Shown: positions 18,031 to 36,634, counted from the first letter of the stretch. The stretch is 64,000 bases of DNA from Saprospiraceae bacterium (GCA_020848995.1 JADLHA010000015.1:9229-73228), one strand, 5' to 3'. Numbers and translations: made by a program. Notes: a model not told the origin generated them from the letters alone.

Positions 18031-20076
18031 CTACTTGACGCGGATCACTTCGCTGAATTCACTTTGCCATCCATCATCATTGATCACTTTGATGCGGTAA
18101 CGCATAGAATCTGCTAGCGTGTTGTACCTCTCGCGATACTCCGTTTTAGCCTTCAGCACTTTGTGGGTAATAAACGACTGGCCCTTTATCGAACGATAAA
18201 GCACGAAGGTCTGCTGCTGCTTGTTTGGATAGTTCCAATAAAGTGACACTTGCTTCCTGCTGGTATCTACTTCGACGACAACTTTGGAAACGGCTTTCAG
18301 GGTTTTATCGAGATAAGCCCTCATGGCCAGAACCGAGAGCCTGCCGGAACGTAGACCCGCATCGTCTTCAGCCTCCATGGTGTATTCATAGGTCTCCCCG
18401 GGTTTCAGGTCCTTATCCAGGTATTGGCCCGCAGGCAAGGTAGAAGGACAATCAAATACCGGTACAAAGGACTGCTCACCCCGCTTCCTGCGCAGCAGGA
18501 AGTTACGCCTGACATCGTGCGAAGAACTGTTATTCCATCTTATCAAATTGCCATTCTTGTCAGATACGGAGCTGGTAAAAACGGGAGCGCTCGGCGGCAC
18601 CAGATCCGGCTTTCTCAGGTGGAGCACCTTTGAATACTGCGAATAATTTGACCGGTGGTCAATCGCCACAAGTTTATAGTAAATGTCTTCGGTCAGCACA
18701 TTGAGCGGCAGGGTGTCGGTCCAAAAGGTATCCCGCAATGGCTCGCCTGTCCGGTTGATGTATGTTTGTTTGGGGTGATTGCTGGAATGAACGTAATACC
18801 CTTTTAGGTCGGGTTCGGGGCCGAGTTTCCACGACAGGGTCACCACGCCGTTGGTGTCGACAGACCCTGTAACGCCTTCGGGTGCCGAGGGTGGAATGCT
18901 GTCGATGATCGTGCCGTAATTGGGGAAGGTTACGTTGACGTTGTTTTCTGCGTCAAATACTCCTATCCAATAGTAATTGTTGATCATTTCATTGCAGGTC
19001 GAATCAATGTAACTCCTCGCTTGCTTGGGCAGAGGCCCACGGGTAATTTCGACAAATTCCTTTTGCTTTTCGTTCGATTTTGAAATGCGGAACCCCTCGA
19101 TATCCTGCTGAGCTACCCGCCAGCTGATCTTCATCAATCCATTGCCTAGGTACTCAAAACGCACATCGGTGGGAGGATCCGGAGGCGTGCGGTCGCGACC
19201 CTGAGCATGAATCACGTCCGAAATTGGGCCCCGGGTTCCAAAGGAAGTAAGTCCTTCGATCCGGTAAGCTGCAGGCTGGTAGTTTTCGGTCAGCGAGTCC
19301 CGGTAAATGAAGTAGTCGCTTTTTTTATATCCGGTGAAAGCAACCGGAGCACCATTTAACTTTTCCCACTTCTGATTCTTCTCATTCAGACGGTACACGT
19401 TGAACGCACTGTAAAACTGTTTGTAAATGTCGCGCTTCCACAATAGTTCTACTTTGCGCTCACCTTCGTTCACTGTGTCGACTAAGACCTTGGGATAGTC
19501 AGTGGGCTCAGCGGTCAAAGCAAAAACAGCTCCTGAAACCTTTTCGGTACGTGGGCTTACCCTGTACAAATAATGCTCGCCGGCAATGGCACTAGCATCT
19601 TCAAAACGCAGCGCAGAAAAAATTGCAGCGTCTCGACTGTACTCTGCTGCCAGTACACAGGCGGCGTAAAGGTTACTGAGTTCGGCACTTTTATCCTGCA
19701 AAGACTTTATGGAAAACTCTTTGGGCGTGAGTTTTCCGTGAATGGCCTGCCCAGCTACCATCAGAAAGGTATCCTTCGGGTTGGATTTCACCTTGCGCCG
19801 CCAGCTTTCCAGGGATTGCGGCCGAAGGCTGTCTGCAAGCGTTGTCCATTGGATCCCTTGTTCGGTTCCCTGCCGGAACACCGCGCGCTCAACCTTGTAG
19901 CCGTAGTAATTGCAAAGCCGCCAGGAACCCGGTGAGGAGTGCGCCCAGCGCAAAACCACCCCGTGCCCTTCGAGATAACTTCCCGAAAGTTGGATCGAAA
20001 AACGAACCGTATCCTCCTGGGCCTGGGCAGCTTGGACAATTGCCAGAATCATCATCAGGACTCTAAGTGCTTGCAT
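18031..20076 (-). CDS. Secreted multi-fibronectin-type-III domain protein
   Basis: It has a signal peptide (MQALRVLMMILAIVQAAQAQ). At least three FN3-like modules are introduced by Pro-rich linkers (TPPDPPTDVRFEY, IPPSAPEGVTGSV, VPPSAPVFTSSV). It is the last gene of the cluster. Confidence 0.75.
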   Translation of the reverse strand: MQALRVLMMILAIVQAAQAQEDTVRFSIQLSGSYLEGHGVVLRWAHSSPGSWRLCNYYGYKVERAVFRQGTEQGIQWTTLADSLRPQSLESWRRKVKSNPKDTFLMVAGQAIHGKLTPKEFSIKSLQDKSAELSNLYAACVLAAEYSRDAAIFSALRFEDASAIAGEHYLYRVSPRTEKVSGAVFALTAEPTDYPKVLVDTVNEGERKVELLWKRDIYKQFYSAFNVYRLNEKNQKWEKLNGAPVAFTGYKKSDYFIYRDSLTENYQPAAYRIEGLTSFGTRGPISDVIHAQGRDRTPPDPPTDVRFEYLGNGLMKISWRVAQQDIEGFRISKSNEKQKEFVEITRGPLPKQARSYIDSTCNEMINNYYWIGVFDAENNVNVTFPNYGTIIDSIPPSAPEGVTGSVDTNGVVTLSWKLGPEPDLKGYYVHSSNHPKQTYINRTGEPLRDTFWTDTLPLNVLTEDIYYKLVAIDHRSNYSQYSKVLHLRKPDLVPPSAPVFTSSVSDKNGNLIRWNNSSSHDVRRNFLLRRKRGEQSFVPVFDCPSTLPAGQYLDKDLKPGETYEYTMEAEDDAGLRSGRLSVLAMRAYLDKTLKAVSKVVVEVDTSRKQVSLYWNYPNKQQQTFVLYRSIKGQSFITHKVLKAKTEYRERYNTLADSMRYRIKVINDDGWQSEFSEVIRVK

Positions 20077-20089
20077 CGGGCATTGCAGT

Positions 20090-23000
20090 TTAGTTGTACA
20101 TAAAGGTTAAGGTAGCCTGGCTGCCATTCCGGTCCTGTCCATTTTGATCAGGATATAAATATTGTATTCCGATGACCTCTCTGCCCTTCGCAGCCCGCAT
20201 GTGATCGACCATCTGGACGCTCCGGCTTCTTCCAATGTGCTGATTAAAAAAAGATTGCTGACTGCTTGTCATCATATCATAGGTATTGATCCGGGAACTA
20301 CCTCCTGCAAAACTAACGGTTGTTTGTGCATGCGCAAAGTTGACCAGTGCCGTGCGGAGCTGCCGGTAATGTTCAACCCCCTGTATGTGGGGTTCGTAAT
20401 CAATCTGCGTGGTCCGGTTCGCGATTGCATTGCCCGGCAGTCCGGATGGGATTCGGAGCCTGTTCGCAAACAGGAGACTGTAATCCAGACCACTGACACC
20501 AGGTGAAGCAATGATCTCGGTAAACGCATCCTGCACTTCCCCGGAAGAAAGGGCTTGCAGATAATAGGATGCGGAATTGATCTTAACGCGGGAAGAATAG
20601 GGTTCCATCCCACTGATCCCCTCCAGTTCCGGGCAGCTGATCCGGTGCCCCGGATTGGATGACTGGTATTTTCTCAACAAGTCAGCGCGGTGAAGACCTG
20701 CACTCGCATATACATGCAGTATTTTGGGCATGGTGACCTCCATCAGGTAGCGGCTCACTGGGAAGAGGGTTGCCCTGCTGCGACCATCCAGGATGTCAGG
20801 TGGAGCTTGCAATACGAAGTCTACCCTTTTTGAGAATTCGATGGCATTTCTATTGGGCACCACCTTGAATGAGGAAACATCTACCCACTCAAAGCTCTCT
20901 GCCATCTCCTTCTTCACCCTGCCCAGGTCGTATCCTAAAAAATTGACGTTTTCATATCTCCAGTTGCTCTGTTCGCTTTCCATTTTCTCTCGCATGGTCA
21001 AAAACCGCGAAGTCCTGAAAAAATAAGAAAACAACTCAACTTCGTACCTCTGCACCTGTCCTGATGGCAATTGAATGCGCTTGTACTGGGTGGATCTCAC
21101 GGTGCTGTTGCCGATGGTGTGTGCAAAGTTGACAACTTGCAACGACCGGTCCGTGCGGGACGGATCGATGCGGGGTCTGGTGAGTTCGCGCGACGCCGCT
21201 TCTGAAATGTTGAGATCGCTTATGGGCTGGTCCTTCCTTATGATCTGGATGCAATATATTTTATCCCGCAACAGATGGGAAACATTAAAAATTACACCCT
21301 TTGCCTGAAGCATCACCCGCACGGGAACATTGGTCACCTGGCCATCCTCATCGGTGAAGCGCGCATAAAATGTTGTGCGCACGTTGCTGACATCCCCTTC
21401 CTTCAGACATCGGTTGTCGGTCTGTCGACAACGGATATAACCTTCGTTGTCTTGGGTCTCTCCTTTGAGAAAGTGTCTTTGGGAAATGTACGGATAGGTA
21501 AAGGACAGATTGTCATCAACAATCTTATCGGGTTCTTCTCCGGTGGTAAAATGGTGGATTTTTTCTTCGCGAAACACACTTCCCCGCACAAGAACGTCTC
21601 TGCCGTTTTCGCGCACGCGGGCTTCAACGCGAATGCTGTGTCTGGTTAACGACCGCAGCACAGCCAGCGGTACAAATGTATAAATGTGATTGGAGTCGGT
21701 CCAGCTTCCCGTACCGGTCAGATTGACACTGGTTCCTTCCCTGCGCAATTCAAAACTGTGCATATACGGTTGAAGTCTGCGGATCACCGGAGGGTCTACC
21801 GGGGACCCATACTCTTCGATTTCAAACGTCCTGTTCATTTCCATTGAAAAAGCAGCACTCACCTCCGTATAAACTGAAACGTCGTCGGCCCCGTCGGCCG
21901 GGCTGATGTCCTGAATGATCTGAATGCCGGAGAATGGGTTTCCCGTCACCACTTCACAAACGGTCCCTGCCTGGAGTACAAATTCGCAATCGCCTTGTGC
22001 CAAACCGTTGCAGACGTTGTAATAGAATCGTCCGCGGCCGGTAACCCACTCGGGCCTTGGCAGTCCGCCTCTGAGGATAATGGCCGCACAGGCTTGCAAA
22101 ATATTTACTTTGACCTCTTCAACAAAAAGGTTGATCTTAATTCCGAACGCACCTTCGATGCCTGCATAAAATTGACCGGTGGCGTACCAGCCGTCAATTC
22201 CCGGTTCCGTATCGGTTCCGGAACAGCGCCGGTCCATGTCCGGAGTTGCATGGGTCACATTGACATCAAAACCCATTACCGAAGTGAGGTTGAAGAAGAA
22301 GGGAAAGAATTCGATGTCACCGGTACTCATGACCATGGTCATGCCCATCGCAAAACCCACCCCCGATGGTGGTGCAGGCCGAGACCGGCCGGCCACCAAA
22401 TGATCGACGTCGCCATCGAGACTTTGCACGCGGTTCGGCGTTGCCTTGGCCCGCTCGAATATGCTAAGGAAGACAGAATCCGGCTCTGGCATGATGACGG
22501 GGATGCCGTGGCCGACCATCATATAATTGGTCACCCGGAGAAGTTCGATGGGTCCAATGGCCAATCTGACGCCACAGCGGTTGGTCGGGGTTCCCATATG
22601 GAAATACCATTCATCCTCTCCCGCGAAGAACTTTGCCCAAACAAGCGCATGCTCAGGTGTCCATCCCGTCGGCACGCTGTCCAATCTGCCAATGCCACCC
22701 AAGATCGGAGGATCCATGTCATATGGTACTTTGAGCTTCACAAAAAAGCATCCATCCAAAACCGTTGGTCCCCCTGGAGGCATGTTCAGGGTCATTCGCA
22801 CGTAGCCTGCAACGGGACTTCTGCCTTCCCTGCCAACCGTAGCGACGGAGATGCCATCCGACATCACGCGGAAAGATCCCCTGAAATCAAACATGGTGAG
22901 ACCGTGTGCGAAGCTGAATGTTGCGGTGAGGGTGACGTCGAGGTTGTAGGCCTTGCCCTGATCGTTTGACCCCAGCACCACCATAAATTTAAGGCCAAGG

Positions 23001-26000
23001 TCAGTGCCAAAATCAGGAACGTACCCATCTCTGGGAATTGCCCGGTTCGAACCTACAGCTGCTCCAGCTGTAGCCAGGACATCTCTTCCCTTTGGTAGAT
23101 TTCCCACCAAGTTCATGTGATGAAAGAATCCACCTCCGAGGCCATACAGGACGACCCCAGAAAACAAGGTGATGCCCGGGTTCAGAACGACCATTCCGTC
23201 TACTGAAAAATAGGAAAACCAGCTAGCAGTATTATAATTGGTCGCCCCAGGGAGTTTCCGGCATCCAAACTCAGCGTTGATATCAATACCCACCGTGATG
23301 CCGAGTTTGATCTCGAGCTGGATACCACCCTTTACCCCTTCGTCGATGGCGTCTTTGTAGAATTCGAGGTATCCGCTAAGCTTTAGATCAGACGCCTCAA
23401 CGCGCAAATCGATGCGCTCCAGATTAACGCCCGTTAAGTCAAAGCGCTGTGGTGAAGATAAGAGGTCCATGCTGATCAGGAGCGAGATCCTGGCTGACGC
23501 CGAAAAACCGCCCTCCCCCCCCGTAAGGGTAATCCTGGGTTTGATGGTAATGCGGTCATTTGAAATTCCAAAGCTGTCTAAGCCAATGGGGAATCCCGAC
23601 ATGGAGGATTCGCTTTCTCCTTCGGGCAGATACCAATCTGGATAGTTCAATTGCAGGAAATGAGAACCCCCACCTGATCTACCACCTGGTGAAGATCCGC
23701 CCAGACCCGTAAGAGAGTAATGAAATTCTCTCGTGTCGAAACCCGTCTCTGAATTGATTCTCAAATTCCTCACTTCGATGCCAGGCATGCTAAGGGTCGA
23801 TGGCATGCTTTGTCCCTCAGGCAGGTTGCTGTTGCCAATGCGCAAAACAGCGCTGAGGTTAGCCTCGATGTAATTGTGAGTGCCAAGCGATGCTTTGACA
23901 TAACTGTCGCTGCGGATAACGGCTTCTGCCATGGATATCGGTATACGGATGTTCTCAGCGGGACGGACGGAGATGACAAAATTGATGGAATCCTTTTGCT
24001 GGATACCCTCCGCATTTGTCCGTATGTTGAGTTCAGCCTGGTAGACCATATACTGGCTGGCTTCTGCAATGGGGATGCCCAGTTTGCCGTTAAAGCCCGC
24101 CCTCCGGAAATTATTCTGAATGATTTCAAGGTAAACGGTATCCAGAGAAGCAGCCCATCCGTTGAAGTTGCCATCTCCGTCCCAGCGCAGGATGTTTTCT
24201 GCGGCAGCCCGAAACGACAAACCTGTATGGTCTATAAAGATATTTCGGAATGCAAAGGTTAGCCGCCCACGATCCGGGCCTTGCAGGCGTTCCGGCGTGC
24301 GGACACTGACTTCCTCCATAAAAAATCCCTTCCAGGTATTGAAGACGTCTGGGCTGGCCAAGGCGGGGTGGGTGTATCCAGTGGGTAGGCAGGCCCGCAG
24401 GCGATCCGGATTTTCCAGATCGGAAAGATCGACCCAGCAGTTGTGTCCTGGCTGGAAGCCCCAGCCTTCCATGCCGGGAACCTGAAATGCGTCCATGTCC
24501 ATGCGAAGCATCAAGTGCCCGCCTCGCGTAATTCGACCGCCGAAGCGCGCCTCTACCTGACCTGAGGCCATGACTTCACCGGAAGCGTTTTCGGGCAGCA
24601 GCCATTCGCGCGTAAATCGAGCCGCACCAAAGAGGTTGAGCGCCCTGAATCCCTCGCAATCCCATTCTACAGAAGTCACCGTCGTGCGGTCGGGGTTTCC
24701 ATAAGCGCCCTTGATTCGAAATTCATTGTCATTCCCAAGAGGGAATACCTGGTCCTGCGGCAGATACAAGCGCACGTCGTTACCAAATCCATCGGGTGTA
24801 ATGCATACCTGCGCCCCGAGTGAAATAAACCCGTTGACAAACTCGAGGTTGGGAATGCGGATATTGACCACGAGGTCCATCGAAGCGGAGTCCTTCAACA
24901 CGCGCAGGTTCATCAGGCCTATTACAATCCGGGCACCTCCGATTTCCTTGTCGATGCCAATCGGGAGACTGACTTTGGAACCGGCGCTCAGCAGGCTGAG
25001 CAACTTTGAACCTGCCTCCAGCCCTGCTTCCATCGCATCGGCGGCCCCCTCATCCATGCCCAGCAGACGGCCCAGACCTGAAAGGTGTTCGGAAACCGGA
25101 AAAGCCTCCTCTATAACGGGCGTTAGCGTACCACCAATCATTTGCCGCGAAGCATTGATTTGAATACCGCTCAGCCTGAATTTAATTTTTACATTGTTTA
25201 AATAGCGGAGTTGCAAGTAACCAATACCTGTACCGGCAGACTCCAATGACTCCACTTCAACAGTAAATCCTGCAGCTGTAAAACTGCTTCCGGCAGAAAT
25301 GCTCCCTGAAGGTGTCGTTGAAGTGATTTCCGGAAACCTACAGGGAGAGGCACATGTACTCCGGCTCTCTTCCTCAGGAGTCTCTTCCCCGGACTCTGCC
25401 CGGATGTGGAATCGCCTGATCGGGCTGCTGTGGTAAAATTCGGAATTGCTAAAGTAAAACTCCTCTCGCTGCGAGTCTTCGGTAAGTGATTCGGGCACGT
25501 ATTGTGCCGGATCCAAGAGCCATAACACCCTCCAATAATAGTCTCCACTGTCAGACAGGACCTTTTCGCGATCGTTTACGACAAAAATTCCGGTCATCAG
25601 ATCCTCCACCGATGCAAAATTTCTTCCACCAATTCGAGCTGAAAATGCTCCGACAATGCTGTCCGCAACAAAACGCTCAGAGGTCGAAATCTGAAGTACC
25701 CATCGCTCATCGACTTCACCGTAATAACTGGCATCCTCGATGGTGCGACCGTGCATGCGCAACAGATAAAACACGTCGGGAAAAGAATTTGCGGGCAAAG
25801 CCCCGTTATCCCAACGAAATTCTACGGATCCGGGATCCACCGTAGCGCCATTAGCAGGGCTTACCAATCCGGGAATGGGCATTCCGGATACAAAATTGCT
25901 TTGCAGGACAAATGGATGAACGACTCCGTCATCCATCGTCATCCTCACATCAGCGGCTGCACGATTGGCCCTTGCTCTTTGAAACGCTGGCGTATTCCAG

Positions 26001-27323: not shown

Positions 27324-29039
27324 TCATAGTGGATTGCTTCCATGCTGCCTGTTTTGAAAGAGGGAATAATTCAAATTGATAGATAATCGCAAGTCATTAA
27401 ATTTGGATGTCACCAAAGAAGACTTGTCGAGATAGGCCAGCGACGTGGTGACCGCAATTGCCGGTGTAATGGCAAACCCACAATTTAATGAAAAATTCAC
27501 GGTTTTTCCGTCATCGTGCTCGCCTGCTTTGAGAAGATAGTAGCCACCGGCTGCTCTGAATGATAATTTTGGCGCATCAAAATTTTTACTAAAACTCAGA
27601 TTTGCGCCGGATCGACGCTGCTCACCCTGTTCGAATTGCTCCGTTCCGGTGATCAGGCCCAACGTCATACTCGCTTTGAGTAAGCGCGCCTGTACATTAT
27701 AGTTCAGACCGTAGTGGATTACCTTTCCGGTTCCAAATGCAGAGGCAACAGGGCTAACGTCTTCGAGCTCGCTTTGCTGATAGGACAGTCCCAACTGATG
27801 AGGCCATCTGGTGTTTCCGAACTTTATCTGCGGGCTGAGTTGGATAACGGCTGTATTCCGCACCAGCCGGAATGTATCATTGAGCTGAGCAATTCCGGGC
27901 GACTGGTCCATTGTAAAATTGGAAAAGGAGCCCTGTAGAGCAAAGTTTTTGTGAGGAGCCAGCATTGCGTTGGCACTTAGAATCGTTTTTTTGGAAGTAT
28001 TCCTCCGGATGCTGTTCAGATTGCTGGTCTGCCATCCGGACACCGTATTCAATACCAGCTTGTTCTTCCAAACTCGGAGACCAATGCGGAGGGTGATGTC
28101 TTCCACATCATCCTGAATGTAATGCATCCCAAAACTACGGTAATTGGGATCGATGTGTTTGAACACGACTCCAACGTTGAAGAAGCGGTGGTTGTATTTC
28201 AAAGAAGCATCGTATGCCAGGTTGGCGCGAGTGGTGTTGTTGGTCGTCATAAAGGGATCGACGAAAATCTGAATATCCCGGCTTCGCTTATCCTGCAGGC
28301 TGTCCTCCCTGGCCAGTTGATTGTTCGTCAACGTTGAGAGATCTGCATTGACCTCAAACTGGAAGCCCTGCAAAAAAGCGAATTTTCCCCTTGCCCCCAG
28401 CACCAGATTTTCAGCAGGAGCAAAAATGGTTCGGTTGATCAATGTATCGGTATTTGCAATGTAATCATCCTTAGCCTTTAAAAAATGAAGGTCGATGTGT
28501 CTTCGCTCCTTACCAAAACCCAGATTGATGCCGTATATACTGCGGCGATAATCCTGGATAAGGTGGGAATAGAATGCCAGGGAATCCAGATGGTAATTAG
28601 GGGTCTTTACCGTTCCATACATTCCGGAAAAGCGGAATAAACCCGGGGTCATTTCCACCCCTGCGCCCAGAAATGTGATTCCGTTGAGCGAATAATTGCT
28701 GAATTGCATCACGCGATGGCCCAGATGGAGTTTGACCCAGCGATACGATGGACTCAGCCCGAACCTGACAAAAGGGTTGGAAAATCCCGCAGTAAAGCGA
28801 CCCGTTCGAAAGGTGAGGTGGATCGGTATCTGTATGGTAAAAAGCTCCAGATTTCCGCGGAAGCTGGCGAGATATCCCGAAGAATTCACTTCCGCTGTAT
28901 CCCTAGTCTGGTAGCTTCCGTTATACGAAAGACTCAGGTATGCACTTTTTTTGAACAGATTTCCTTTTCTAAAAGAGCTGATGTCCTGGGAGCCAACAAG
29001 ACACGGAAGAAGTACAAACAAGCATACTGTAAATCGCAT
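27324..29039 (-). CDS. Predicted outer-membrane beta-barrel protein (571 aa)
   Basis: It has a signal peptide (MRFTVCLFVLLPCLVGSQ). Amphipathic beta-strand periodicity runs the whole length, and an aromatic-terminated segment LSINLNYSLF lies near the C-terminus. I recognise no POTRA, plug or OmpA domain. Confidence 0.6.
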   Translation of the reverse strand: MRFTVCLFVLLPCLVGSQDISSFRKGNLFKKSAYLSLSYNGSYQTRDTAEVNSSGYLASFRGNLELFTIQIPIHLTFRTGRFTAGFSNPFVRFGLSPSYRWVKLHLGHRVMQFSNYSLNGITFLGAGVEMTPGLFRFSGMYGTVKTPNYHLDSLAFYSHLIQDYRRSIYGINLGFGKERRHIDLHFLKAKDDYIANTDTLINRTIFAPAENLVLGARGKFAFLQGFQFEVNADLSTLTNNQLAREDSLQDKRSRDIQIFVDPFMTTNNTTRANLAYDASLKYNHRFFNVGVVFKHIDPNYRSFGMHYIQDDVEDITLRIGLRVWKNKLVLNTVSGWQTSNLNSIRRNTSKKTILSANAMLAPHKNFALQGSFSNFTMDQSPGIAQLNDTFRLVRNTAVIQLSPQIKFGNTRWPHQLGLSYQQSELEDVSPVASAFGTGKVIHYGLNYNVQARLLKASMTLGLITGTEQFEQGEQRRSGANLSFSKNFDAPKLSFRAAGGYYLLKAGEHDDGKTVNFSLNCGFAITPAIAVTTSLAYLDKSSLVTSKFNDLRLSINLNYSLFQNRQHGSNPL

Positions 29040-29061: not shown

Positions 29062-30012
29062 CTATCTACTCCGTCTGGGTGGGGCCGGATCGGCAACTCC
29101 GAGATGGTCTCTGATAATACTTCTCAACCATATAGGGAATGGGTGTCCATACGGGTTGACTAACTTACCGGGTATTGCGGGGTCTGGCGTCCGGTTCTCC
29201 GCATCAAACCAAACGCCATCTGGTTCGTACTGGGCTCCGCCTCTGGAGCGCCAGTTTTTCCTGAAATGATAGGAGGCAATGCCCTGAGCAATCACCTCAC
29301 TTGGACCGCGGCTATCTCCTCTGTAATAATATACCGTTCTACCATCTCTGGTATAGCTTGAATTCAGGTAATCCTGGAATTGATCTCGGTATTCAGGAAG
29401 ATTTCCATAATGTTCCGCCAATTGAAATTCCCTGTCTACAAAATGTCCTATCTCGTGCAGTAGGGTAATGCGAACGTTCGTTCGTTCTTCCCGGTCGAAT
29501 GCCATCGGATGAAGGGTGATGACATCATAAAGGTCATTTCTCCTTACGCAACGCCTTGCACCCCCTCCTATACTGTGACCATCTCCGTCCTTGCTATCGC
29601 GCCTTCCCGGACGACTCGGAGCCAGCGCCCCCGTCAGGGGAACTGCAATCCGGAAATTCACCGGCAATGCTGGCAGGTAGTTTTCCGGCAGCACCGCCAT
29701 GACTTCACGGATCACGTCAAGTTGATCCGAGGTAATATTGTAAAAACGGAAAGTGCGCCCCCGGATATTTTCTTCAATGAGTTCACCCCAGATGGTAGAG
29801 ATGTTTTCCTGGCCGGCATTTTCTTCGATGCACAATACCCTGCGGGCATTCATGACGTAACAACATTGGCAACCTTCACTTTCGCAATTGGAGACCAGTC
29901 TCGCAACGCGCGTGGGGCGTTCCTGTCGGCGGGGCTCGGGGTCATCTTGCGCAAACAGCGTGGGCACGTTACAAAAGGTGTAGGCCACCAGGATCAGGAG
30001 TACCCCTTTCAT
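29062..30012 (-). CDS. Secreted HExxH zinc metallopeptidase-like protein
   Basis: It has a signal peptide (MKGVLLILVAYTFCNVPTLFAQ) and the zincin motif TLLHEIGHFVDREF. Its start codon overlaps the stop of the upstream collagen-like gene (ATGA). Confidence 0.7.
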   Translation of the reverse strand: MKGVLLILVAYTFCNVPTLFAQDDPEPRRQERPTRVARLVSNCESEGCQCCYVMNARRVLCIEENAGQENISTIWGELIEENIRGRTFRFYNITSDQLDVIREVMAVLPENYLPALPVNFRIAVPLTGALAPSRPGRRDSKDGDGHSIGGGARRCVRRNDLYDVITLHPMAFDREERTNVRITLLHEIGHFVDREFQLAEHYGNLPEYRDQFQDYLNSSYTRDGRTVYYYRGDSRGPSEVIAQGIASYHFRKNWRSRGGAQYEPDGVWFDAENRTPDPAIPGKLVNPYGHPFPIWLRSIIRDHLGVADPAPPRRSR

Positions 30013-31928
30013 GGTTTCCGGGATTCAAGTTCAGCAATGCGCCTTTCGAGTTTTTGGATCAACTCTTGTTGCTCCTGAATGGCTTTGACGAGGAAAGGCG
30101 TGATCTCCGAATAATTTACCGCATAGCTCTGCTGCACTGGAGAAGACCTCTCGCCACCTTCCCGTTTCGAAACGCTCACCTCTGGCTTTCGAACGACTTC
30201 GGGAAGGACGTTTTCGAGTTCCTGGGCAAGAAAGCCCGTATGCAGGTAGGTATCGCCCTCTTTCCAATGGTAGGACACAGGCTTCATCCGCATCACTTTA
30301 TCCAATGCAGACCCAAGGGGTTGGATGTTCTTTTTTAAACGGGCATCAGAGGTTTGGTTGAGTCCGTTTACGCTCCATATTTCAGACCACCGGTAATTGC
30401 TCGATCCCAGCCGGGTCATATTGTGGAAATTCGGACCGAATTCGGTGGTTGCATGGAAATAACCCACATGGCCAATGCCATTTACCGTAAAGGTCAGCGA
30501 GTTGTTGTTGCCTTTCATCCCGGCCCCGGTGGCACTAAACCGCAGTTCGTTTGTCAAAATGCGGAGTCCCTGGTATTCAATGCCTCCTGCAACAGGAGTC
30601 CAGGGATTGCTGTCCTTATCGGGTGCTGCTTCCCACTGCTGGTTATTAAATGGGAACCATTTCAAAACGTAGCCTTGGGTAGGGGCCTGCGCGCTCACCG
30701 GTTTGCCCTGCAATTGGATGGCGTTCCAGAGTGCGCTGGTATTTTGGGCACTGATCACATTGGAAGCAATCGCAATTCCAGTACCCGCCGTGTAGGTCCC
30801 GGGAGGGCCGGGAGGGCCTTGAGCTCCCTGAGGCCCAATGGGGCCCGTGGCGCCCTGTGGACCCGTAGCACCCTGGGGACCTGTGGCACCCTGTGGACCC
30901 GTGGCGCCCTGTGGGCCAGCCGTCCCTTGTGGTCCCTCAGGCCCTTGGATCCCTGCCGGGCCAGTTGGCCCCTCCTGTCCCTGTGGACCCTGAGCGCCCG
31001 TTTCTCCCTGGGGGCCCTGGATTCCCTGTGGTCCCTGAGGGCCGGCGGGACCTTGAATTTGCCCGATTGCCGTCCAATCGGTCCCATTCCAGACATGACC
31101 AGTACCGGTATCTTCCGCAATGAACATATCCCCAACATTGCCTCCGTAATTCGCATCAAGGCTGTCCACACTGGGTACGGTTCCAATGATCATGACGCCG
31201 GAACCATCCTCACCGGGTTCCCCTTGAGGCCCTTGAAGGCCTTGAGGGCCGGCAATGCCTTGTTCTCCCTGAATGCCTTGTTCTCCCTGTATCCCCTGTG
31301 GGCCGGCGGGTCCCTGTGCACCCTCATTGCCGGCGGGTCCCGGGTCGCCTTTGGGACCTTGAGGTCCTGCCGGACCAGTCTCCCCCTGCGGACCAGGGAT
31401 TCCCTGTGGGCCGGGGTCTCCTTTGATTCCCTGCTCGCCCTGCAAACCTTGTATCCCCTGAGGTCCCTGCATGCCCACTGCTCCCGCTGGCCCGGTCTCT
31501 CCCTGGATCCCCTGCGGACCCGGCTCCCCCTTATCCCCATTTTCTCCCTTAGGACCGGTAAATGCTGCGCTGTTCACCAAAGACTGGCCGAGGTCCTGGT
31601 AGTTGCCATTTGGCCCGTCGGCACATTGTACACTGAGGTATCTGGGGCCTGCATTCCAGTCAATGGCGCCGATGTCGCCTTGCTCCACCACCCCGCTTCC
31701 AACAAGAACCGATAAAAACCCATAGGCATCCGTTACAGGTTCCTGCCGCTCCCGGTATAACACATCATTTGCCAACCGGTCGGTACTGATAATAAATTTC
31801 AGGTAAACGATCTGGTTTGCCAGAGCTTTACCCGTACCATCGCGCACGATCGACTGGTAATTAAAACCCTGACCGTAAAGTCCTGCATTGCACAGCAGCA
31901 CAATTAGAGCAAAGGCTATTTTTCTCAT
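30009..31928 (-). CDS. Collagen-like triple-helix repeat protein with a C-terminal tail-fibre / peptidase S74 intramolecular chaperone domain
   Basis: ATG 31928 gives the signal peptide MRKIAFALIVLLCNAGLYGQ. There are two G-X-Y runs, 40 triplets at nt 31197-31556 and 28 triplets at nt 30801-31052. The C-terminus carries SDARLKKNIQPLGSALDKVMRMKPVSYHWK...YSEITPFLVKAIQEQQELIQKLERRIAELE. Confidence 0.85.
   Translation of the reverse strand: MRKIAFALIVLLCNAGLYGQGFNYQSIVRDGTGKALANQIVYLKFIISTDRLANDVLYRERQEPVTDAYGFLSVLVGSGVVEQGDIGAIDWNAGPRYLSVQCADGPNGNYQDLGQSLVNSAAFTGPKGENGDKGEPGPQGIQGETGPAGAVGMQGPQGIQGLQGEQGIKGDPGPQGIPGPQGETGPAGPQGPKGDPGPAGNEGAQGPAGPQGIQGEQGIQGEQGIAGPQGLQGPQGEPGEDGSGVMIIGTVPSVDSLDANYGGNVGDMFIAEDTGTGHVWNGTDWTAIGQIQGPAGPQGPQGIQGPQGETGAQGPQGQEGPTGPAGIQGPEGPQGTAGPQGATGPQGATGPQGATGPQGATGPIGPQGAQGPPGPPGTYTAGTGIAIASNVISAQNTSALWNAIQLQGKPVSAQAPTQGYVLKWFPFNNQQWEAAPDKDSNPWTPVAGGIEYQGLRILTNELRFSATGAGMKGNNNSLTFTVNGIGHVGYFHATTEFGPNFHNMTRLGSSNYRWSEIWSVNGLNQTSDARLKKNIQPLGSALDKVMRMKPVSYHWKEGDTYLHTGFLAQELENVLPEVVRKPEVSVSKREGGERSSPVQQSYAVNYSEITPFLVKAIQEQQELIQKLERRIAELESRKP
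30844..30917. repeat. 18-bp tandem repeat x4 encoding (GPQGAT)4 inside the collagen-like gene
   Basis: The units are cccgtggcgccctgtgga, cccgtagcaccctgggga, cctgtggcaccctgtgga and cccgtggcgccctgtggg. A second 18-bp doublet (aatgccttgttctccctg x2) lies at 31253-31288. Confidence 0.8.
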
Positions 31929-31939
31929 TGTAGAAATGA

Positions 31940-32422
31940 TTATGGGTTGACGATTACTTTGGAAAAGAGTTCCCGGCCAGAGCGGCTCAGCAAACGAACC
32001 ACGTAACACCCTGGAGGCAAGGCGGATGTTTCAAAACTGGTAGCTCCCGGTTGTATACGAGGCGCTTTACCGTAAAGATCGTTGAGTACAATGATGTACT
32101 CCCGGATGCCTCCCACTGAAAAGTACAGGCGTTCAGAAGCCGGATTGGGAAAAACTTCAAAAAAAATTGCTTCGGATTCGCCTTCAACGGCAGTAATGAC
32201 GGGGTCAGGCGTAAATGGAGATTCAAACCGGAGACCATTGCAATGACCATAAGCAGGAACCAGGATCCCGGTATTGCTTTGGAAAGTCAATTTACCGCAT
32301 TGTCCTACAAAGTAAGATGTAGACTGAAACCCTGTCAACCTGCACTGCGCTTGCAAAGGAGTCGTCGTAACTAATAACAGCCATGCCAGGATCGGAATGG
32401 GCATTTTGCACATCTCTCTCAT
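31940..32422 (-). CDS. Small T9SS cargo protein (signal peptide, ~60-aa Cys-containing domain, type A C-terminal sorting domain)
   Basis: The CTD reads FFEVFPNPASERLYFSV...CYVVRLLSRSGRELFSKVIVNP. The signal peptide is MPIPILAWLLLVTTTPLQAQ. The start is ambiguous among ATG 32422, 32413 and 32404. Confidence 0.7.
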   Translation of the reverse strand: MREMCKMPIPILAWLLLVTTTPLQAQCRLTGFQSTSYFVGQCGKLTFQSNTGILVPAYGHCNGLRFESPFTPDPVITAVEGESEAIFFEVFPNPASERLYFSVGGIREYIIVLNDLYGKAPRIQPGATSFETSALPPGCYVVRLLSRSGRELFSKVIVNP

Positions 32423-32427
32423 ATGCA

Positions 32428-32435
32428 CAAAAATA
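32428..32435 (-). promoter_or_regulatory. Candidate -7 box (TATTTTTG) ahead of the structural genes
   Basis: It matches TAnnTTTG on the minus strand. It lies downstream of the kinase-stop hairpin and just upstream of the possible starts 32413 and 32404. Confidence 0.25.
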
Positions 32436-32469
32436 CCTTTGACTGTCTTGCTATAAAAAATCAGCACAC

Positions 32470-32506
32470 CACATGATGATGCATCCAATTGTCACATCAT
32501 CATGTG
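32470..32506 (-). promoter_or_regulatory. 12-bp perfect inverted repeat (hairpin) straddling the histidine-kinase stop codon
   Basis: CACATGATGATG (32470-32481) pairs with CATCATCATGTG (32495-32506) across a 13-nt loop that contains the TGA stop. On the minus strand a T6 run follows 9 nt after the stem. Confidence 0.5.
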
Positions 32507-35500
32507 AATTTTGCCTTTTGGATAGAGTGAAGCTGTCTTCGGAGATGAATATTCGATATGAACACTTGTCCCACGCTCATCTGTTTGGATGGAGAGTACC
32601 GCTCCCAAAGCCTTTGCCCGGCTCTTCATGTTCTTTAACCCGTTTCCATGATGCACAATTGCCGGGTCAAAGCCAACCCCGTCGTCGCGAATGTCCGCTA
32701 TGATCTTCCTGTCAACCAGCCTCAGGCTCAATACGACGTTTCGCGCCATCGCGTATTTTGAAATGTTGTTGATGGCTTCTTTGAAAATGAGATAAAAATG
32801 GCGTTTTGCCTCGGGGCTAAGCCGGATGGATTCGGGGATTGGTTCAATCATAAATTTCAGCGCTATCCCGCTCTCTTCAAGCGTTTCGATGGCAAACTCT
32901 TGTATCTTGGTGATTACCTCATTCAAATGGTCGTACTTCGGATTGATGCTCCAAATGATTTCAGACATACTCTGCATGACCTCTCCCAATTTACCGGCAA
33001 TCTTCGAATACACGGGACTTCCGCTCTTGATTGCCTCGAGCTCAGCAAGCATCCTCAATTGTGAAAGATTGCTTCCCATGTCGTCGTGCAGGTCCCTTGC
33101 GATGCCAAAACGGATTTTCTCCAGCTTGATTCTCTGTCCTACACGGTATCTAAATAACGCCAACACGGCTGCAAACACCAGAAAGAAAACCAGCACATAA
33201 AAACCATTTGTATTCCAAAAAGGGGGATGTATGACAAAGTTCAATTTATACATGTTCCTTGCTTGGAGTCCCCTCCAGTTGAAGGCCCTAACCATCAGTA
33301 TGTATTCTCCCGGGCCCAAGCCCTGAAAGACCATCCTGTTCCCTGATAAGGTAGTCCACCCGGGATCAGAAAAGCCCCTCGGGGCTTTGTCAAAAGCGTA
33401 TTGGTAAACGATGTCCTCGGCATTGGTATAATTGCACAAGGTAAAGCTGATCTCTAAAGCATTTTGGTGATAGGCCAGTTCCAACTGCTCATGGCTTCTG
33501 GGCAATCGCTGCAAGGAAAGGTTTCGGACTTCGATGCCGGATAACTTGATGGAATCCAGTTTTCGGAATTGCTCTGCAAGAAAATCCATTTCGATCAGTC
33601 CCCCAATTTGTTCAACCAGCAGCGAGGTTTCATCCCGTGATTTGCACAGGAATGGTCCCGGCAACTGGCTGATGGTAGTATTGTAATAAGCATATTTGCA
33701 CAAGAACCCATTATTCAGGTCCAGGCGATTGATGCCCGCATCTCCGCTGAACCATACGATGGAGTCACTCTCCGCTTCAACATAATAAGCGCATCCCACT
33801 GCCTTACCACCGTTCTCATTGTAATAATGCACGGATGGAGGATAAAAACTCATATCGAAAAGGGCGCCTCCGGATGTAGAACTGACAAAAAAGCGATGAT
33901 CGTTCAATCTGGCAATATCATTCATATTCCGCATCCAAAGCAGGTCAGGATGCGATCGTTCATCGAATGCTACCGCCTCACCGTCAGCAAGATTGTACCA
34001 GACCAAAACCGATCTTCCATTCTCCTGCTTTCTGGTTAGAAATGCCATAGCGGAATCCGAAAGGAATTCAAGACTTCCGGTGAATCTGCTAAGGTTACCA
34101 TTCTCCAGAAAATCATGCAATCGCTTGTCGGGAACGGCTTTCCCCAATTGCTCATCGAAAAAAAACGGACCGTTGAAGGTGGAAAACCATACTTTACCTG
34201 AAGGAGTTTCCGATATATGGTACACCTCACCGGTCGAATCCTTGCCTAGTGCATTGGTTACACGGATCGTCCCGCTCTCCCCGGGGCAATAATACTGCAA
34301 ACCGCTCTTGGTTGAAGTCAACCAAAACCTTCCCCTTGTGTCGAGGTGTATGTTGTGAATGCCCTCATCCGCCTTAACCATTTGGCGCAATGGCTTCGCC
34401 AGGGATATGCATTGGTTTTTCCGAAAATCATAGAGCAGTACCTCCAGATAAGGGTAAAACAAGTATGCCCTTCGCTCATTCGCGTCATCAGGATTTAGCC
34501 AACAAATATTGCGCAAACGCGAATTCCGGTAAACATCAGGAATATTCAGTACAAGGTGTCTGAAGCTTTGTTTGTTGATATCCAGTTTGTGGAGACCCTT
34601 ATACGTTCCTATCCATAATATGCCGTCTTTATCCGGCAAAAAACAGAATCCGGATCCCGGCACATCACTCGCTGTAGCATTTCCTGTCGCTGCATGCAAG
34701 GAAAAAGTTTCCCGTCGCATATTAAAACGCATGATCCCGGAGGTCGTTGCCAGCCAGAGGTCATTACCCGCTTCGTCAAATGGTGAAGGACATATTGACA
34801 GAATCCCTTGCTGCCTGGATTTGTCGTTGCTCCATAGGTATTGTTGTTGATGACCGTCACTGACTCGAAATCGGGTAAGCCCAACGACCCAATTGCCCAC
34901 CCATAGAACGCTGTCAGCCTGCAAATAAGAACAAAAAAACCCAGAACTCGATGCGATCGAAGTATCCCTCCCGATGAGCCGGTACACTTTGTACGTATGT
35001 CGAAATGGATCGTATACATAAATGCCGTATGTTCCGACGAGCAAAAAGGTTCCGTCTTTCAAAATCTCGATCGACATAAAGTTTTGGTGTGGAAGATCGA
35101 GGGGGAAATAAAGCAATTTTTCAGATCCTCCTTTACAGGAATAGAGACCCGTCTTTGTTACCACCCAAAGTATGTCAGCCTGTCCATCGTATTTAAAATG
35201 GTAATAGGATCTCCTCTGTTCTCCGTCGCAAAATTCCGGAGTAACCAGCTTTTGCGTCCCCGGATAATACACATAGAGTTGTCCGTCGATGTTCATCCAA
35301 ATCCTGTCGCGGGCATCGACCAGAAGGTGGGATACGTAGTTTCCCGGGATGTGCGCAGAATCCTTTACCCCAAAGCGGATGGTACTGAAGCGATGGGCAT
35401 CCCATTTAATCAATCCCGATTCTGTACCGAGCCAGAGAAATCCATCGGAGGTTTTTCCCAGACTCATCACCTGTGAAGCAGTAAGGCCTTCCTTGGGCCC

Positions 35501-35617
35501 GAAATGATCGAAATACATGGAACCTGCCTCCTGAGCCTGGAGTGATGGAGTAACGGGCAAGGAAACCCACCATAACACATTAATAGCGAACGCGCTCAAC
35601 AAGGAGCTCAGACTCAT
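32492..35617 (-). CDS. Sensor histidine kinase with periplasmic two-component-regulator beta-propeller repeats and a Y_Y_Y domain, HisKA_3 and HATPase_c
   Basis: ATG 35617 gives the signal/TM segment MSLSSLLSAFAINVLWWVSLPV. It has a Y_Y_Y-like segment (YQYAF...GEYILMVRAFN), a TM helix (FYVLVFFLVFAAVLALF), the H-box ARDLHDDMGSNLSQL, and DDGVGFD / GNGLKNMKSRA. Confidence 0.85.
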   Translation of the reverse strand: MSLSSLLSAFAINVLWWVSLPVTPSLQAQEAGSMYFDHFGPKEGLTASQVMSLGKTSDGFLWLGTESGLIKWDAHRFSTIRFGVKDSAHIPGNYVSHLLVDARDRIWMNIDGQLYVYYPGTQKLVTPEFCDGEQRRSYYHFKYDGQADILWVVTKTGLYSCKGGSEKLLYFPLDLPHQNFMSIEILKDGTFLLVGTYGIYVYDPFRHTYKVYRLIGRDTSIASSSGFFCSYLQADSVLWVGNWVVGLTRFRVSDGHQQQYLWSNDKSRQQGILSICPSPFDEAGNDLWLATTSGIMRFNMRRETFSLHAATGNATASDVPGSGFCFLPDKDGILWIGTYKGLHKLDINKQSFRHLVLNIPDVYRNSRLRNICWLNPDDANERRAYLFYPYLEVLLYDFRKNQCISLAKPLRQMVKADEGIHNIHLDTRGRFWLTSTKSGLQYYCPGESGTIRVTNALGKDSTGEVYHISETPSGKVWFSTFNGPFFFDEQLGKAVPDKRLHDFLENGNLSRFTGSLEFLSDSAMAFLTRKQENGRSVLVWYNLADGEAVAFDERSHPDLLWMRNMNDIARLNDHRFFVSSTSGGALFDMSFYPPSVHYYNENGGKAVGCAYYVEAESDSIVWFSGDAGINRLDLNNGFLCKYAYYNTTISQLPGPFLCKSRDETSLLVEQIGGLIEMDFLAEQFRKLDSIKLSGIEVRNLSLQRLPRSHEQLELAYHQNALEISFTLCNYTNAEDIVYQYAFDKAPRGFSDPGWTTLSGNRMVFQGLGPGEYILMVRAFNWRGLQARNMYKLNFVIHPPFWNTNGFYVLVFFLVFAAVLALFRYRVGQRIKLEKIRFGIARDLHDDMGSNLSQLRMLAELEAIKSGSPVYSKIAGKLGEVMQSMSEIIWSINPKYDHLNEVITKIQEFAIETLEESGIALKFMIEPIPESIRLSPEAKRHFYLIFKEAINNISKYAMARNVVLSLRLVDRKIIADIRDDGVGFDPAIVHHGNGLKNMKSRAKALGAVLSIQTDERGTSVHIEYSSPKTASLYPKGKIHMMM

Positions 35618-35977
35618 TTGCCAATCTATTGAATCCAGGTTCACCGAAGGTGCATGCGATTTCGAATCAGGCAAAGGTACAACTGCGAATTGCCTTCGAA
35701 CACGGGAAAGGCCATTCCCGTCAATTTCAGTAGCCATTTCCGCATTTTGTGACAACGCTCCTTGACCCCGTACGACCGTACCCAACGCGAGCTCATAACA
35801 TCAACCATTGCCCAGGTCTCTTTACGGTCAGAGCAGCATTGGGAAAGCACGCGCAATTTAGATTCTGAAGGTCATCTTCCACATGGCCAGCTTAAAACCA
35901 GCCAATGCAACAACAGGATTGGTATGACCACATATGCCAACGCGTTCGCTATCCAATCTCCCACAAGCGCCGAAGCG

Positions 35978-36634
35978 TCAAAATTTCCCCTCAGGACCTG
36001 GATGCCCTTTACTCTCAATGAATACTTTATGAACAGCCTCGGTAACGGAATGCACATGCAACTTTTCGTATATGCGCTTGACATAACTCCGGATGGTATC
36101 GATGCTCAGACACATCTCATCGGCTGCCATTTTATAGCTCAGTCCACGTGACAGGCACTTCAGCACATCCAGTTCGCGGTCGCTGAGGTTGAAGGACGGC
36201 CTTTCTGCAGGTTTTTCGGCCACAGACAGTTCGAGTACTTTTCGGGCGATGGCCGGGCTCATAGGGGCTCCGCCATCCTTTACTTCTCGAATGCTGCCCA
36301 CCAGATGCCCCAGACTGCTTTTTTTCAACAGATAACCGGTGGCACCTGCCTTTAAAGCCTCGAAAATCCTGTTGTCGTCATCAAATACCGTATTGATGAT
36401 GACTTCGACCTTCGGGAAAGCAGCTTTCACTTCTGCCGTACCTGCGATGCCAGACTTTCCGGGCATGTCAATGTCCATAAGAATTACATCAGGCTGAAAG
36501 GCTCTGGTGTTTTCAATCACATCCATGCAGTTGCCGAATTCGCCGGCCATTTCCAAATCCAGCGTACTTTTAATTACCGACACGAGAACTTCCCGCAGTC
36601 CGACGTTGTCTTCGTAAATGGCTACCTTGATCAC
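35978..36634 (-). CDS. NarL/LuxR-family response regulator
   Basis: The start codon is GTG. The receiver domain has VILMDIDMPGKSG. The C-terminal LuxR HTH reads LSDRELDVLKCLSRGLSYKMAADEMCLSIDTIRSYVKRIYEKL. Confidence 0.9.
   Translation of the reverse strand: MIKVAIYEDNVGLREVLVSVIKSTLDLEMAGEFGNCMDVIENTRAFQPDVILMDIDMPGKSGIAGTAEVKAAFPKVEVIINTVFDDDNRIFEALKAGATGYLLKKSSLGHLVGSIREVKDGGAPMSPAIARKVLELSVAEKPAERPSFNLSDRELDVLKCLSRGLSYKMAADEMCLSIDTIRSYVKRIYEKLHVHSVTEAVHKVFIESKGHPGPEGKF

Follow-up and report, generated by a model that had tools for sequence, protein, structure and literature searches.

A barrel, giant and FN3 protein gene triad conserved across Bacteroidota and beyond, possibly encoding an outer-membrane surface display complex

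A 64,000-nucleotide (nt) stretch of DNA from Saprospiraceae bacterium (GCA_020848995.1 JADLHA010000015.1:9229-73228), here called the window, carries eight co-directional genes at positions 18031 to 36634, counted from its first letter. Their products are a response regulator, a sensor kinase, a small protein with a putative type IX secretion system (T9SS) C-terminal domain (CTD), a collagen-like fiber, a secreted zincin-type protein, an outer-membrane beta-barrel, a giant protein of 2,384 residues and a protein made of fibronectin type III (FN3) repeats. What kind of system do these genes encode, and do all eight belong to it? An account made from the DNA alone (the sequence-only reading) had treated the eight genes as one unit that it could not name. 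We found that the unit is real in terms of synteny, but that only the barrel, giant and FN3 genes (the triad) are universal, so that this is not one eight-gene system. The unit consists of the universal triad, a lineage-specific fiber cassette and interchangeable regulators. The triad is most likely a surface protein coupled to an outer-membrane barrel, from unnamed families.

A word-indexed search returned 16-20 homologues of the giant protein and gave the misleading picture of a tiny family confined to Saprospiraceae. This picture was overturned by an exhaustive hidden Markov model (HMM) search with the giant core, which matched the representatives of 2,710 clusters (50% identity) at E≤1e-3 and those of 1,911 clusters at E≤1e-30. 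Species-representative genomes contained 389 matching stretches, in Bacteroidota, Ignavibacteriota, Chlorobiota and Rhodothermota. The locus counts given here rest on the best 78 of these 389 stretches (one genome per species), all of them metagenome-assembled genomes (MAGs). According to the submitters' taxon labels, these loci come from Saprospiraceae (30 loci), Lewinellaceae (2), Chitinophagales (1), Cytophagales (4), Bacteroidales (12), Flavobacteriales (9), unspecified Bacteroidota (10), Ignavibacteriota/Kapaibacterium (8), Chlorobiota (1) and Rhodothermus (1).

The ORFs (open reading frames) of all loci were searched with our own HMMs for the six structural proteins. The barrel gene lies directly upstream of the giant gene in 58 of the 71 loci with enough flanking sequence. 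Among the exceptions, L039, L074 and L080 have a fragmented giant gene with the barrel gene still upstream, and the order is permuted in L056 and L076. The FN3 gene directly follows the giant gene in 60 of 67 loci. Median gaps are -4 nt between barrel and giant genes and +2 nt between giant and FN3 genes; among called genes, the end of the barrel gene overlaps the beginning of the giant gene by 17-26 nt, which fits translational coupling and a fixed stoichiometry. The same arrangement was seen in contigs with giant homologues at 60%, 51%, 29% and 22-23% identity. The barrel gene immediately precedes the giant gene in all of them, and an FN3 gene for approximately 700 residues follows it, except in one contig that is cut at its end. 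Synteny of the three genes across Bacteroidota, the check proposed by the sequence-only reading, is thus strong and extends beyond the phylum. The same order recurs in dozens of contigs that are unrelated, far beyond what chance would give.

The barrel gene (27324-29039; like the other seven genes, on the minus strand) encodes a protein for which an AlphaFold2 model was built from 42 family members. The model is an outer-membrane beta-barrel of 26 strands (pLDDT 81.9, pTM 0.70) and nothing besides: it has no plug and no POTRA or periplasmic domains. A signal peptide, a closed antiparallel barrel and, in the majority of the family, a C-terminal aromatic residue place the protein in this fold class. 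Most family members end in Phe, and the window member adds 10 residues after ...YSLF. Foldseek returned 297 barrel matches in PDB at E≤1e-3, to large barrels generally. They were led by FimD/PapC (E 2.6e-9, TMq 0.46), MtrB (TMq 0.51, the best TM-score) and SlpA, all at approximately 10% identity; FimD/PapC and MtrB, the nearest structures, are protein-conducting or protein-filled barrels. Pfam matched zero families in the 42 family members, including PorP_SprF, Omp85, Usher and TonB-dependent receptor, and PorP_SprF was not matched in them even at E≤0.1. NCBIfam, PHROG and PADLOC likewise had no match for the barrel, and sequence and profile searches of PDB gave no significant one. A protein search gave 58 matches to the family, all of them hypothetical proteins, and a 100%-identical protein is recorded from a Saprospiraceae MAG.

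The giant gene (20090-27244) encodes a secreted all-beta protein of no named family. Searches of Pfam, NCBIfam, PHROG, PADLOC and PDB left it unmatched save for a sub-threshold Big_5 match, and PDB gave 0 matches at E≤1 with the single sequence and 0 at E≤10 with a 16-sequence profile. In its homologues, a leader of approximately 30 residues ends in an invariant Gln (Q32), and the cleavage site looks like V-T-A|Q. Residues 33-619 (25388-27148) are repeated immunoglobulin (Ig)-like modules with a PPYP... motif and a conserved Cys pair, C147 and C165, which is nearly invariant. The copy number of these modules differs among relatives, as HMM coverage drops and repeats over this region in 148 representatives. 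Residues 42-181 align with the N terminus of an Ignavibacteriaceae partner protein. Coverage over the same 148 representatives defines residues ~620-2120 (20885-25387) as the universal core, which has long amphipathic beta strands and the motifs GLGGGF[YF]HHM and DGWYATGQFYAG, and which contains the Big_5-like Ig domain (residues 1777-1879). The last part, residues 2121-2384 (20093-20884), is a clade-specific C-terminal region in which fewer than 25% of the representatives are covered. In long relatives, C-terminal extensions carry lectin-like LamG domains (residues 4181-4347 of P0075) or BspA-type LRR_5/DUF285 repeats (residues 2876-4411 of P0077). The invariant residues of the giant, mainly Gly, Pro and aromatic residues, speak for a structural rather than a catalytic role.

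We also modeled the giant core (residues 740-1935, 12 sequences). AlphaFold2 gave an all-beta structure with many strands of 14-21 residues, at pLDDT 58.9 and pTM 0.43. Foldseek detected local likeness only, to the ApoB100 beta-belt, LptD and other barrels (TM ~0.1, probability up to 0.93). With this model, the matches indicate only a meandering antiparallel sheet, and no fold was assigned. The core strands are strongly amphipathic (1.91 versus -0.79), a property that does not tell a membrane barrel from a lipid groove or a sandwich.

The third triad gene (18031-20076) encodes a tandem FN3 repeat protein of 681 residues (Pfam fn3, 28.9 bits), whose family profile matched titin FN3 arrays in PDB at 1.4e-28. 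A signal peptide is followed by Q; no lipobox and no CTD are present. The length of the protein is steady across phyla, at approximately 690-720 residues. In P0151 and independently in L027, giant and FN3 protein are a single polypeptide in which the gene order is kept; the match in L027 begins at position 52 of the FN3 model. Since the two are fused in these cases, the sequences argue that giant and FN3 protein act together in one compartment. Barrel, giant and FN3 protein each have a Sec signal peptide followed by Gln, and they fit the Q-rule of Bacteroidetes signal peptidase I substrates, which have Gln after the cleavage site (PMC5837995).

The distribution of the triad is patchy. Three MAGs have two separate triad loci each (L020/L022, L037/L039 and L046/L055), showing that the module can be multi-copy; patchy distribution and multiple copies are typical of accessory surface systems. 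The neighborhoods are enriched in surface and T9SS proteins, namely giants with SprB repeats (10 loci), TIG-NHL proteins (8), fibers (29), and GEVED-CTD and DUF5122-CTD proteins.

Several variant loci were observed. The sole example from a cultured organism among the examined loci is Spirosoma sp. HMF3257 (GCA_003259005.1; L008, 9941-19543). There, the barrel gene is intact; behind it lie six ORFs of 281-733 residues and then a giant with SprB repeats. Five of the ORFs (406, 436, 316, 440 and 281 residues) correspond to parts of the giant core and of the FN3 protein, and this copy is a split version or else a fragmented one, a pseudogene. L006 and L007 (2-11714) contain part of a giant-like ORF (more than 1,060 residues), an FN3 protein of 899 residues and a second giant of 1,893 residues, with no barrel gene in the contig. 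Five Bacteroidales MAGs (L060, L062, L063, L069 and L072) have short giants of approximately 1,465-1,493 residues, essentially the core alone. In L060, L069 and L072, the giant gene is followed by the FN3 gene and then by a gene for an SprB-repeat protein of approximately 2,300 residues; in L062 and L063, an SprB-repeat protein gene directly follows the giant gene, and an FN3 gene was not found. At the other end of the size range, the core profile matched P0082 (5,511 residues) and P0188 (3,698 residues) in 5-6 separate stretches, and these cores may be internally duplicated or rearranged. In L004, where the giant has 3,259 residues, the region 3' of the FN3 gene (14503-19532) contains five co-directional genes for products of 155-441 residues without a Pfam match, followed by a Gp49 (HigB-like) gene.

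The fiber cassette consists of the CTD-protein, fiber and zincin genes, and in the scanned loci this set is limited to the Saprospiraceae subclade of the window. In the closer relatives L002 and L003, the three genes recur upstream. In L047, L050, L053 and L061, the CTD-protein and fiber genes sit downstream of the FN3 gene, and the zincin gene is missing from L049 and L083. Wherever the scanned loci show both, the CTD-protein gene is directly upstream of the fiber gene. The fiber set is an add-on, and the CTD-protein gene followed by the fiber gene behaves as a pair.

The first gene of this pair (31940-32422) encodes a putative small T9SS cargo: a signal peptide, Q, a mini-domain of approximately 60 residues with four Cys, and a probable type-A sorting domain. 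A T9SS CTD had been called by the sequence-only reading. In the window protein itself, the scores are below threshold (Por_Secre_tail 22.1 bits, cut-off 27; TIGR04183 21.8 bits, cut-off 23), but its orthologues in L002 and L003 have a strong precomputed Por_Secre_tail match, and both the Cys pattern and the FPNP...KIIK tail are conserved across the alignment of the family. Cargo with a type-A CTD is expected to be covalently attached to the cell surface, and this would apply to the CTD protein.

The second gene (30009-31928) encodes a trimeric collagen-like fiber (Collagen 108.7 bits; Peptidase_S74 68.6 bits, cut-off 22). The signal peptide is followed by a conserved N-terminal domain, then by two collagen runs separated by an insert, a distal domain and the S74 chaperone. 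In 21 orthologues, the collagen runs vary in length, and the insert between them is small and globular. The distal domain is conserved, with 55-66% identity between the orthologues and the window fiber. An SDxxxK motif is present as S527-D-A-R-L-K532, so that the C terminus has the features of an S74 intramolecular chaperone with predicted autoproteolysis; the meaning of the Ser-Lys dyad of SDxxxK in S74 domains is taken from earlier work (PMC10769870). Tail-fiber families of PHROG matched the fiber down to 2.7e-62. Residues 14-82 gave a weak match to Bdello_MAT_N (E 5.7e-4), the N-terminal domain of the Bdellovibrio mosaic adhesive trimer (MAT) fibers. MAT fibers and phage S74 fibers also have a signal peptide, a conserved N-terminal domain, a trimeric shaft and a C-terminal S74 domain with SDxxxK. 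Like the MAT fibers, the window fiber is chromosomal and not phage-borne. Its shaft, by contrast, is collagen-like and not beta-helical, and its distal domain is conserved and not mosaic. The model NF053851 of the conserved MAT N domain (~130 residues) scored 19.7 bits against a cut-off of 60, and membership of the MAT family was rejected in favor of an analogous architecture only.

The secreted zincin-type protein (29062-30012) belongs to no named family. Its HExxH motif (HEIGH in the window, within an HExGHF pattern) is invariant in 10/10 orthologues, and E239, a candidate third ligand, and Q243 are conserved. At the level of the motif, sub-threshold matches to Zincin_1 (E 0.14) and SprT-like (E 0.028) were obtained; sequence and profile searches of PDB and searches of Pfam, NCBIfam, PHROG and PADLOC gave nothing significant. 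Profile positions 81-115 showed a marginal match (E 0.2-1) to the domain by which P22-type tailspikes bind the phage head at their N terminus; it is probably due to chance and was treated as such.

The remaining two genes encode the regulators. The response regulator (35978-36634) is of the NarL/LuxR type, with a receiver domain (Pfam Response_reg, 70.3 bits) and a GerE helix-turn-helix domain (51.6 bits); its best NCBIfam matches are UvrY/NarL families, under the equivalog cut-offs. The sensor histidine kinase ORF (32492-35785) combines a Reg_prop/Y_Y_Y sensor with HisKA_3 and HATPase_c. As read from its sequence, the sensor part comprises approximately 780 residues, is periplasmic and is flanked by two hydrophobic segments. 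In Pfam, Reg_prop scored 60.8 bits and Y_Y_Y, HisKA_3 and HATPase_c were weaker, the latter two being under their cut-offs; UhpB/NarX/NarQ models align with the transmitter over residues 873-1085. With a receiver and GerE regulator and a HisKA_3 and HATPase_c kinase, the pair is a NarL-class two-component system. The sequence-only reading had called the envelope sensor dedicated. The two-component system is present in the window, but it is not conserved as such across loci, where regulator types vary. L002 has a divergently transcribed LytTR regulator and a Reg_prop/LytS-type kinase, L003 an ECF (extracytoplasmic function) sigma factor and a TPR-CHAT protein, and L005 a downstream pair of a Reg_prop kinase and LytTR, and some related loci have no regulator within 10 kb. 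The neighborhood scan found Reg_prop-class sensor kinases within 10 kb in 24 loci, and the window kinase shows distant similarity only (E 2e-4) to that of L002. A functional link between the two-component system and the structural genes is probable.

Three matches to the Bacteroidetes -7-type promoter consensus TAnnTTTG were found on the coding strand (minus), one per intergenic gap, where ~0.1 would be expected in ~730 nt by our estimate; over the whole window, the count of this motif is not above chance. The first, TAACTTTG (36680-36687), lies 46 nt upstream of the regulator start, and TACCTTTG (35672-35679) lies upstream of the probable kinase start; both are consensus matches only. This start is probably near 35617 (M57), as judged by the hydrophobic segment together with the second motif. 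The third consensus match, TATTTTTG (32428-32435), is located inside the 69-nt gap between kinase and CTD-protein genes and is a candidate promoter for the six structural genes. Because all three intergenic gaps have a -7 motif, the sequence suggests three transcription units and not one: the regulator, the kinase and a six-gene structural operon, with separate promoters.

Does the triad belong to a described machinery? The sequence-only reading had named SprA/Sov, TamA/TamB, Tc toxins and SusC/D as placements that would end its claim of novelty. All were examined, none applies, and its statement that the system could not be named holds. A literature search for a system of such composition found none, a weak negative given incomplete coverage. 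PHROG and PADLOC searches with all products identified only the fiber as phage-like and no defense-system family. SprA structures are in PDB. SprA/Sov was rejected: the giant has no Pfam or NCBIfam family at E≤0.01 and no PDB sequence match, and only the length (~2,400 residues) is alike. In TamA-TamB, as in the triad, a barrel gene is followed, with an overlap, by the gene of a very large all-beta protein. However, TamB has an N-terminal signal anchor and the giant a cleavable signal peptide, hhalign gave a probability of 0.3% for the giant against Escherichia coli TamB and of 0.4% for the barrel against TamA, and Pfam and NCBIfam returned no POTRA, Omp85, DUF490 or AsmA match for barrel or giant. 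SusC/SusD had no Pfam matches, TonB-dependent receptors being just low-ranking generic barrel matches. The TcA, TcB (VRP1/SpvB) and TcC (RHS) domains of Tc (ABC) toxins were unmatched in Pfam and NCBIfam.

Other systems with a barrel and large partners were also compared. Chaperone-usher pili resemble the triad in that FimD/PapC are the top Foldseek matches and the partners are rich in Ig-like and FN3 domains, like pilins. Usher barrels have 24 strands, versus 26 in the triad barrel. The likeness is limited to the barrel (TMq≤0.46, ~10% identity; Usher Pfam model in 0/42 barrels), the cluster has no gene for a PapD-like chaperone or a pilin subunit, and the plug and N/C domains of ushers are missing from the barrel. 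Two-partner secretion (TPS) systems (TpsB-TpsA) likewise pair one barrel and a giant secreted protein encoded by adjacent genes. The triad adds an obligatory third partner, the FN3 protein; the barrel lacks POTRA, and the giant lacks a TPS/hemagglutination-activity domain and beta-helix repeats. SprB and GhpA, the Aureispira grappling hook protein, are giant Ig-rich surface proteins encoded beside an outer-membrane barrel in the same phylum (GhpA in the same family). GhpA with PorP/PorE (GhpB/C) was rejected as the same system, as GhpA is a T9SS substrate with other partners. A T9SS type-B cargo with PorP/SprF was rejected in the same way: no CTD model matches the giant or the FN3 protein, and there is no PorP_SprF barrel and no OmpA-like PorE partner.

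The LptD barrel has 26 strands. LptD-LptE and MtrB-MtrA(-MtrC) are alike with the triad in that a 26-strand barrel is encoded beside its partners and apparently made in step with them. In contrast to these systems, the triad has no sequence relationship, no OstA/LptD domain, no heme motifs and no lipoprotein partner; its barrel is instead partnered by a beta protein of 2,384 residues and by an FN3 array. LptD/LptE itself was rejected, as there is no OstA/LptD family match and strand number alone agrees, in addition to the low-TM local likeness of the giant model. By analogy with these complexes, a plug-less barrel would need a partner to fill it, and the triad may work most like plug-and-barrel complexes and barrel-tethered giant adhesins, with unrelated protein families.

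With somewhat less than even confidence, we therefore tentatively favor an explanation in which the triad proteins form a 1:1:1 outer-membrane surface display complex with an occupied barrel, and in which the other genes of the unit have accessory roles. We infer such a complex from co-inheritance, tight and overlapping genes, Sec export, the plug-less wide barrel, the fusions, the variable ends of the giant, the enrichment of the neighborhoods in surface and T9SS proteins and in Reg_prop-class kinases, and the two copies in some MAGs. Barrel, giant and FN3 protein would be made in fixed proportion as one complex of the outer membrane. The barrel lumen would be filled by a segment of either the giant or the FN3 protein, comparable to LptE in LptD and MtrA in MtrB, and this occupancy would both close a very wide pore and tether the giant to the cell surface. 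There, the conserved beta-rich core of the giant would be a scaffold, its variable N-terminal Ig-like repeats and variable C terminus would be the adhesive or ligand-binding part, and the FN3 chain of constant length may be a stalk or connector. In the Saprospiraceae lineage of the window, the collagen-like trimeric fiber, matured by S74 autoproteolysis, would be added as an extra adhesive element; the T9SS-delivered, surface-anchored cysteine-knot mini-protein is possibly its dock, and the secreted zincin possibly serves processing or release. The adjacent envelope-sensing two-component system probably turns the structural operon on. The inducible surface fiber, adhesin or export apparatus supposed by the sequence-only reading is plausible in this light.

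Several observations weigh against a display complex of this kind. The model of the giant core is poor (see the pLDDT and pTM values above), and its amphipathic strands and its likeness to LptD and ApoB100 would equally fit a membrane-embedded or lipid-binding sheet. A signal for export across the outer membrane was not recognized on the giant or the FN3 protein, and neither has a T9SS CTD. The conserved distal domain of the fiber is unlike typical adhesin tips, which are variable. The link to the two-component system is weak, with regulator types that vary by locus and kinases that are only distantly related. Finally, all examined loci but one are MAGs.

Some of the same features could be explained by a dedicated protein-export machine, in which the triad, with giant and FN3 protein as fixed parts of the machine, is a translocon for Sec-exported neighbors without CTD, such as the S74 fiber. 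The fiber indeed has a signal peptide and no T9SS CTD, the CTD-protein and fiber pair accompanies the triad in varied arrangements, upstream or downstream, and the best structural matches of the barrel are ushers, which pass folded Ig-like subunits. The lumen of a 26-strand barrel is wide enough for folded domains. However, most triads (in Bacteroidales, Flavobacteriales, Cytophagales and Ignavibacteriota) have no fiber gene nearby, the candidate cargo neighbors mostly bear their own T9SS CTDs, and the cluster encodes no energy source or periplasmic chaperone. In addition, the variable LamG and LRR ends of the giant resemble a displayed product and not a machine part. We consider the translocon unlikely. 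A wider proposal is that the triad is a T9SS-independent export-and-display pathway of the Fibrobacterota-Chlorobiota-Bacteroidota (FCB) superphylum, which would make it a new type of secretion system. The plug-less 26-strand barrel would first pass and then retain CTD-less, Sec-exported proteins rich in Ig and FN3 domains, and in some lineages its cargo would include S74 fibers. This proposal is doubtful, and we give it more weight than the translocon alone. A third possibility is a conduit for lipids or other hydrophobic molecules of the envelope, with the giant core as a groove or belt that hands lipid to or from the barrel, in the manner of TamB/AsmA-type bridges or the LptD jellyroll. The long, strongly amphipathic core strands, the top Foldseek matches of the core (the ApoB100 beta-belt and LptD) and the strand number of 26 that the barrel shares with LptD would agree with it. 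Yet the matches have a TM of ~0.1 on a low-confidence model, hhalign probabilities against TamB/TamA are below 1%, and the AsmA, TamB and OstA (LptD) families are unmatched. Moreover, the signal peptide of the giant looks cleaved and would leave no inner-membrane anchor, and a patchy, sometimes multi-copy distribution with LamG/LRR appendages is unlike a housekeeping lipid transporter. We regard such a conduit as rather improbable.

The triad might also be an element of envelope architecture, an outer-membrane anchor like Deinococcus SlpA for a surface layer (S-layer), a sheath or contacts between filaments, and would then not serve as an adhesin toward foreign targets. Many of the carriers are Saprospiraceae described as filamentous or as attached to particles, SlpA/SDBC barrels are among the matches of both models, and fiber and FN3 protein are conserved over their full length. 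The structural matches are generic, however, nothing S-layer-like is encoded, and the variable ligand-binding ends and nearby condition-sensing regulators fit an inducible adhesin better, which makes this anchor improbable in our judgment. That the eight genes are mere neighbors without shared function is hardly credible. Such an explanation could draw on the two-component system, which is not conserved with the triad, and on the whole-window -7 count (see above). On the other hand, the six structural genes recur in the same order, and the triad recurs across phyla with overlaps and fusions. Mere neighborhood is thereby refuted for the triad and, within the Saprospiraceae clade, for the six-gene set, the two-component system excepted.

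These proteins form a large family (at least 2,700 clusters at 50% identity, 389 places) without a name, a Pfam or NCBIfam model or a solved relative. The metagenomes that yielded the carriers are from activated sludge, fresh water, soil and the sea, and for the carrier groups, attaching to particles, filaments or prey is a central trait. Two routes are known by which Bacteroidota mount giant proteins on their surface, T9SS attachment to anionic lipopolysaccharide (A-LPS) and T9SS with PorP/PorE; if display tethered to the barrel is true, it would be a third. If the translocon is true, it would be a new secretion route, and it would address what Sec-exported S74 fibers bind at the surface, as the surface partner of the N-terminal domain was unknown to the authors of the MAT fiber study (PMC10769870). 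By extension, and in our own framing, it could explain the passage of S74 fibers through the outer membrane. For structure determination, the barrel family with its 26 strands and the beta core of approximately 1,500 residues are good targets in either case.

At the level of the DNA, the eight ORFs and their junctions were recomputed from the window and agreed exactly with the sequence-only reading: downstream of the kinase, and with internal starts, the junctions are 69 nt, 11 nt, an ATGA overlap, 22 nt, 79 nt and 13 nt. The internal starts, M34 of the giant (27244), M28 of the fiber (31928) and M23 of the CTD protein (32422), are reasonable. In the case of the giant, this is because M34 leaves a 32-residue signal peptide that ends at the invariant Q32, as in the homologues. 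The domain calls for regulator, kinase, collagen/S74, fn3 and HExxH were borne out by Pfam, NCBIfam and profile searches, and the beta-barrel call by the AlphaFold2 model. Judged by eye, the six structural products, for which signal peptides had been claimed, each begin with a hydrophobic, signal-peptide-like segment followed by Q.

The upstream boundary of the cluster is marked by a strong terminator-like hairpin (36891-36862, minus strand; 13 bp, 9 G-C, T-run), which ends the upstream M16 peptidase gene. It was the sole exception in a scan for sigma-70 promoters and terminators, in which counts were otherwise at chance level. The cluster sits in an ordinary chromosomal setting, with genes for DnaB, aconitase, iPGM, RpoN, LigA and a number of secreted peptidases around it. 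The unremarkable composition and the housekeeping neighbors led us to reject a mobile or phage island.

Two minor observations concern the window as a whole. The motif AACTAACGW occurs 6 times versus 0.34 expected (17930-17987, 36902-36910 and 54683-54691). Four copies with 20-nt spacing lie just 3' of the FN3 stop, and the perfect palindrome AACTAACGTACGTTAGTT is among them; a fifth adjoins the strong terminator behind the M16 peptidase gene, and the sixth follows the M12B-CTD gene. All copies (6/6) are in 3' intergenic regions, and the motif could represent a binding site or a small repeat element of intergenic DNA. The window is also rich in peptidase genes (36931-39720, 40815-44240, 44907-46700, 50960-54607 and 59768-61906), which encode M16, two M12B reprolysin-like (one with Cadherin_3 and a T9SS CTD), M24 and M3 peptidases. 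Saprospiraceae are described as having a protein-degrading lifestyle, and the peptidase density of the window is consistent with it.

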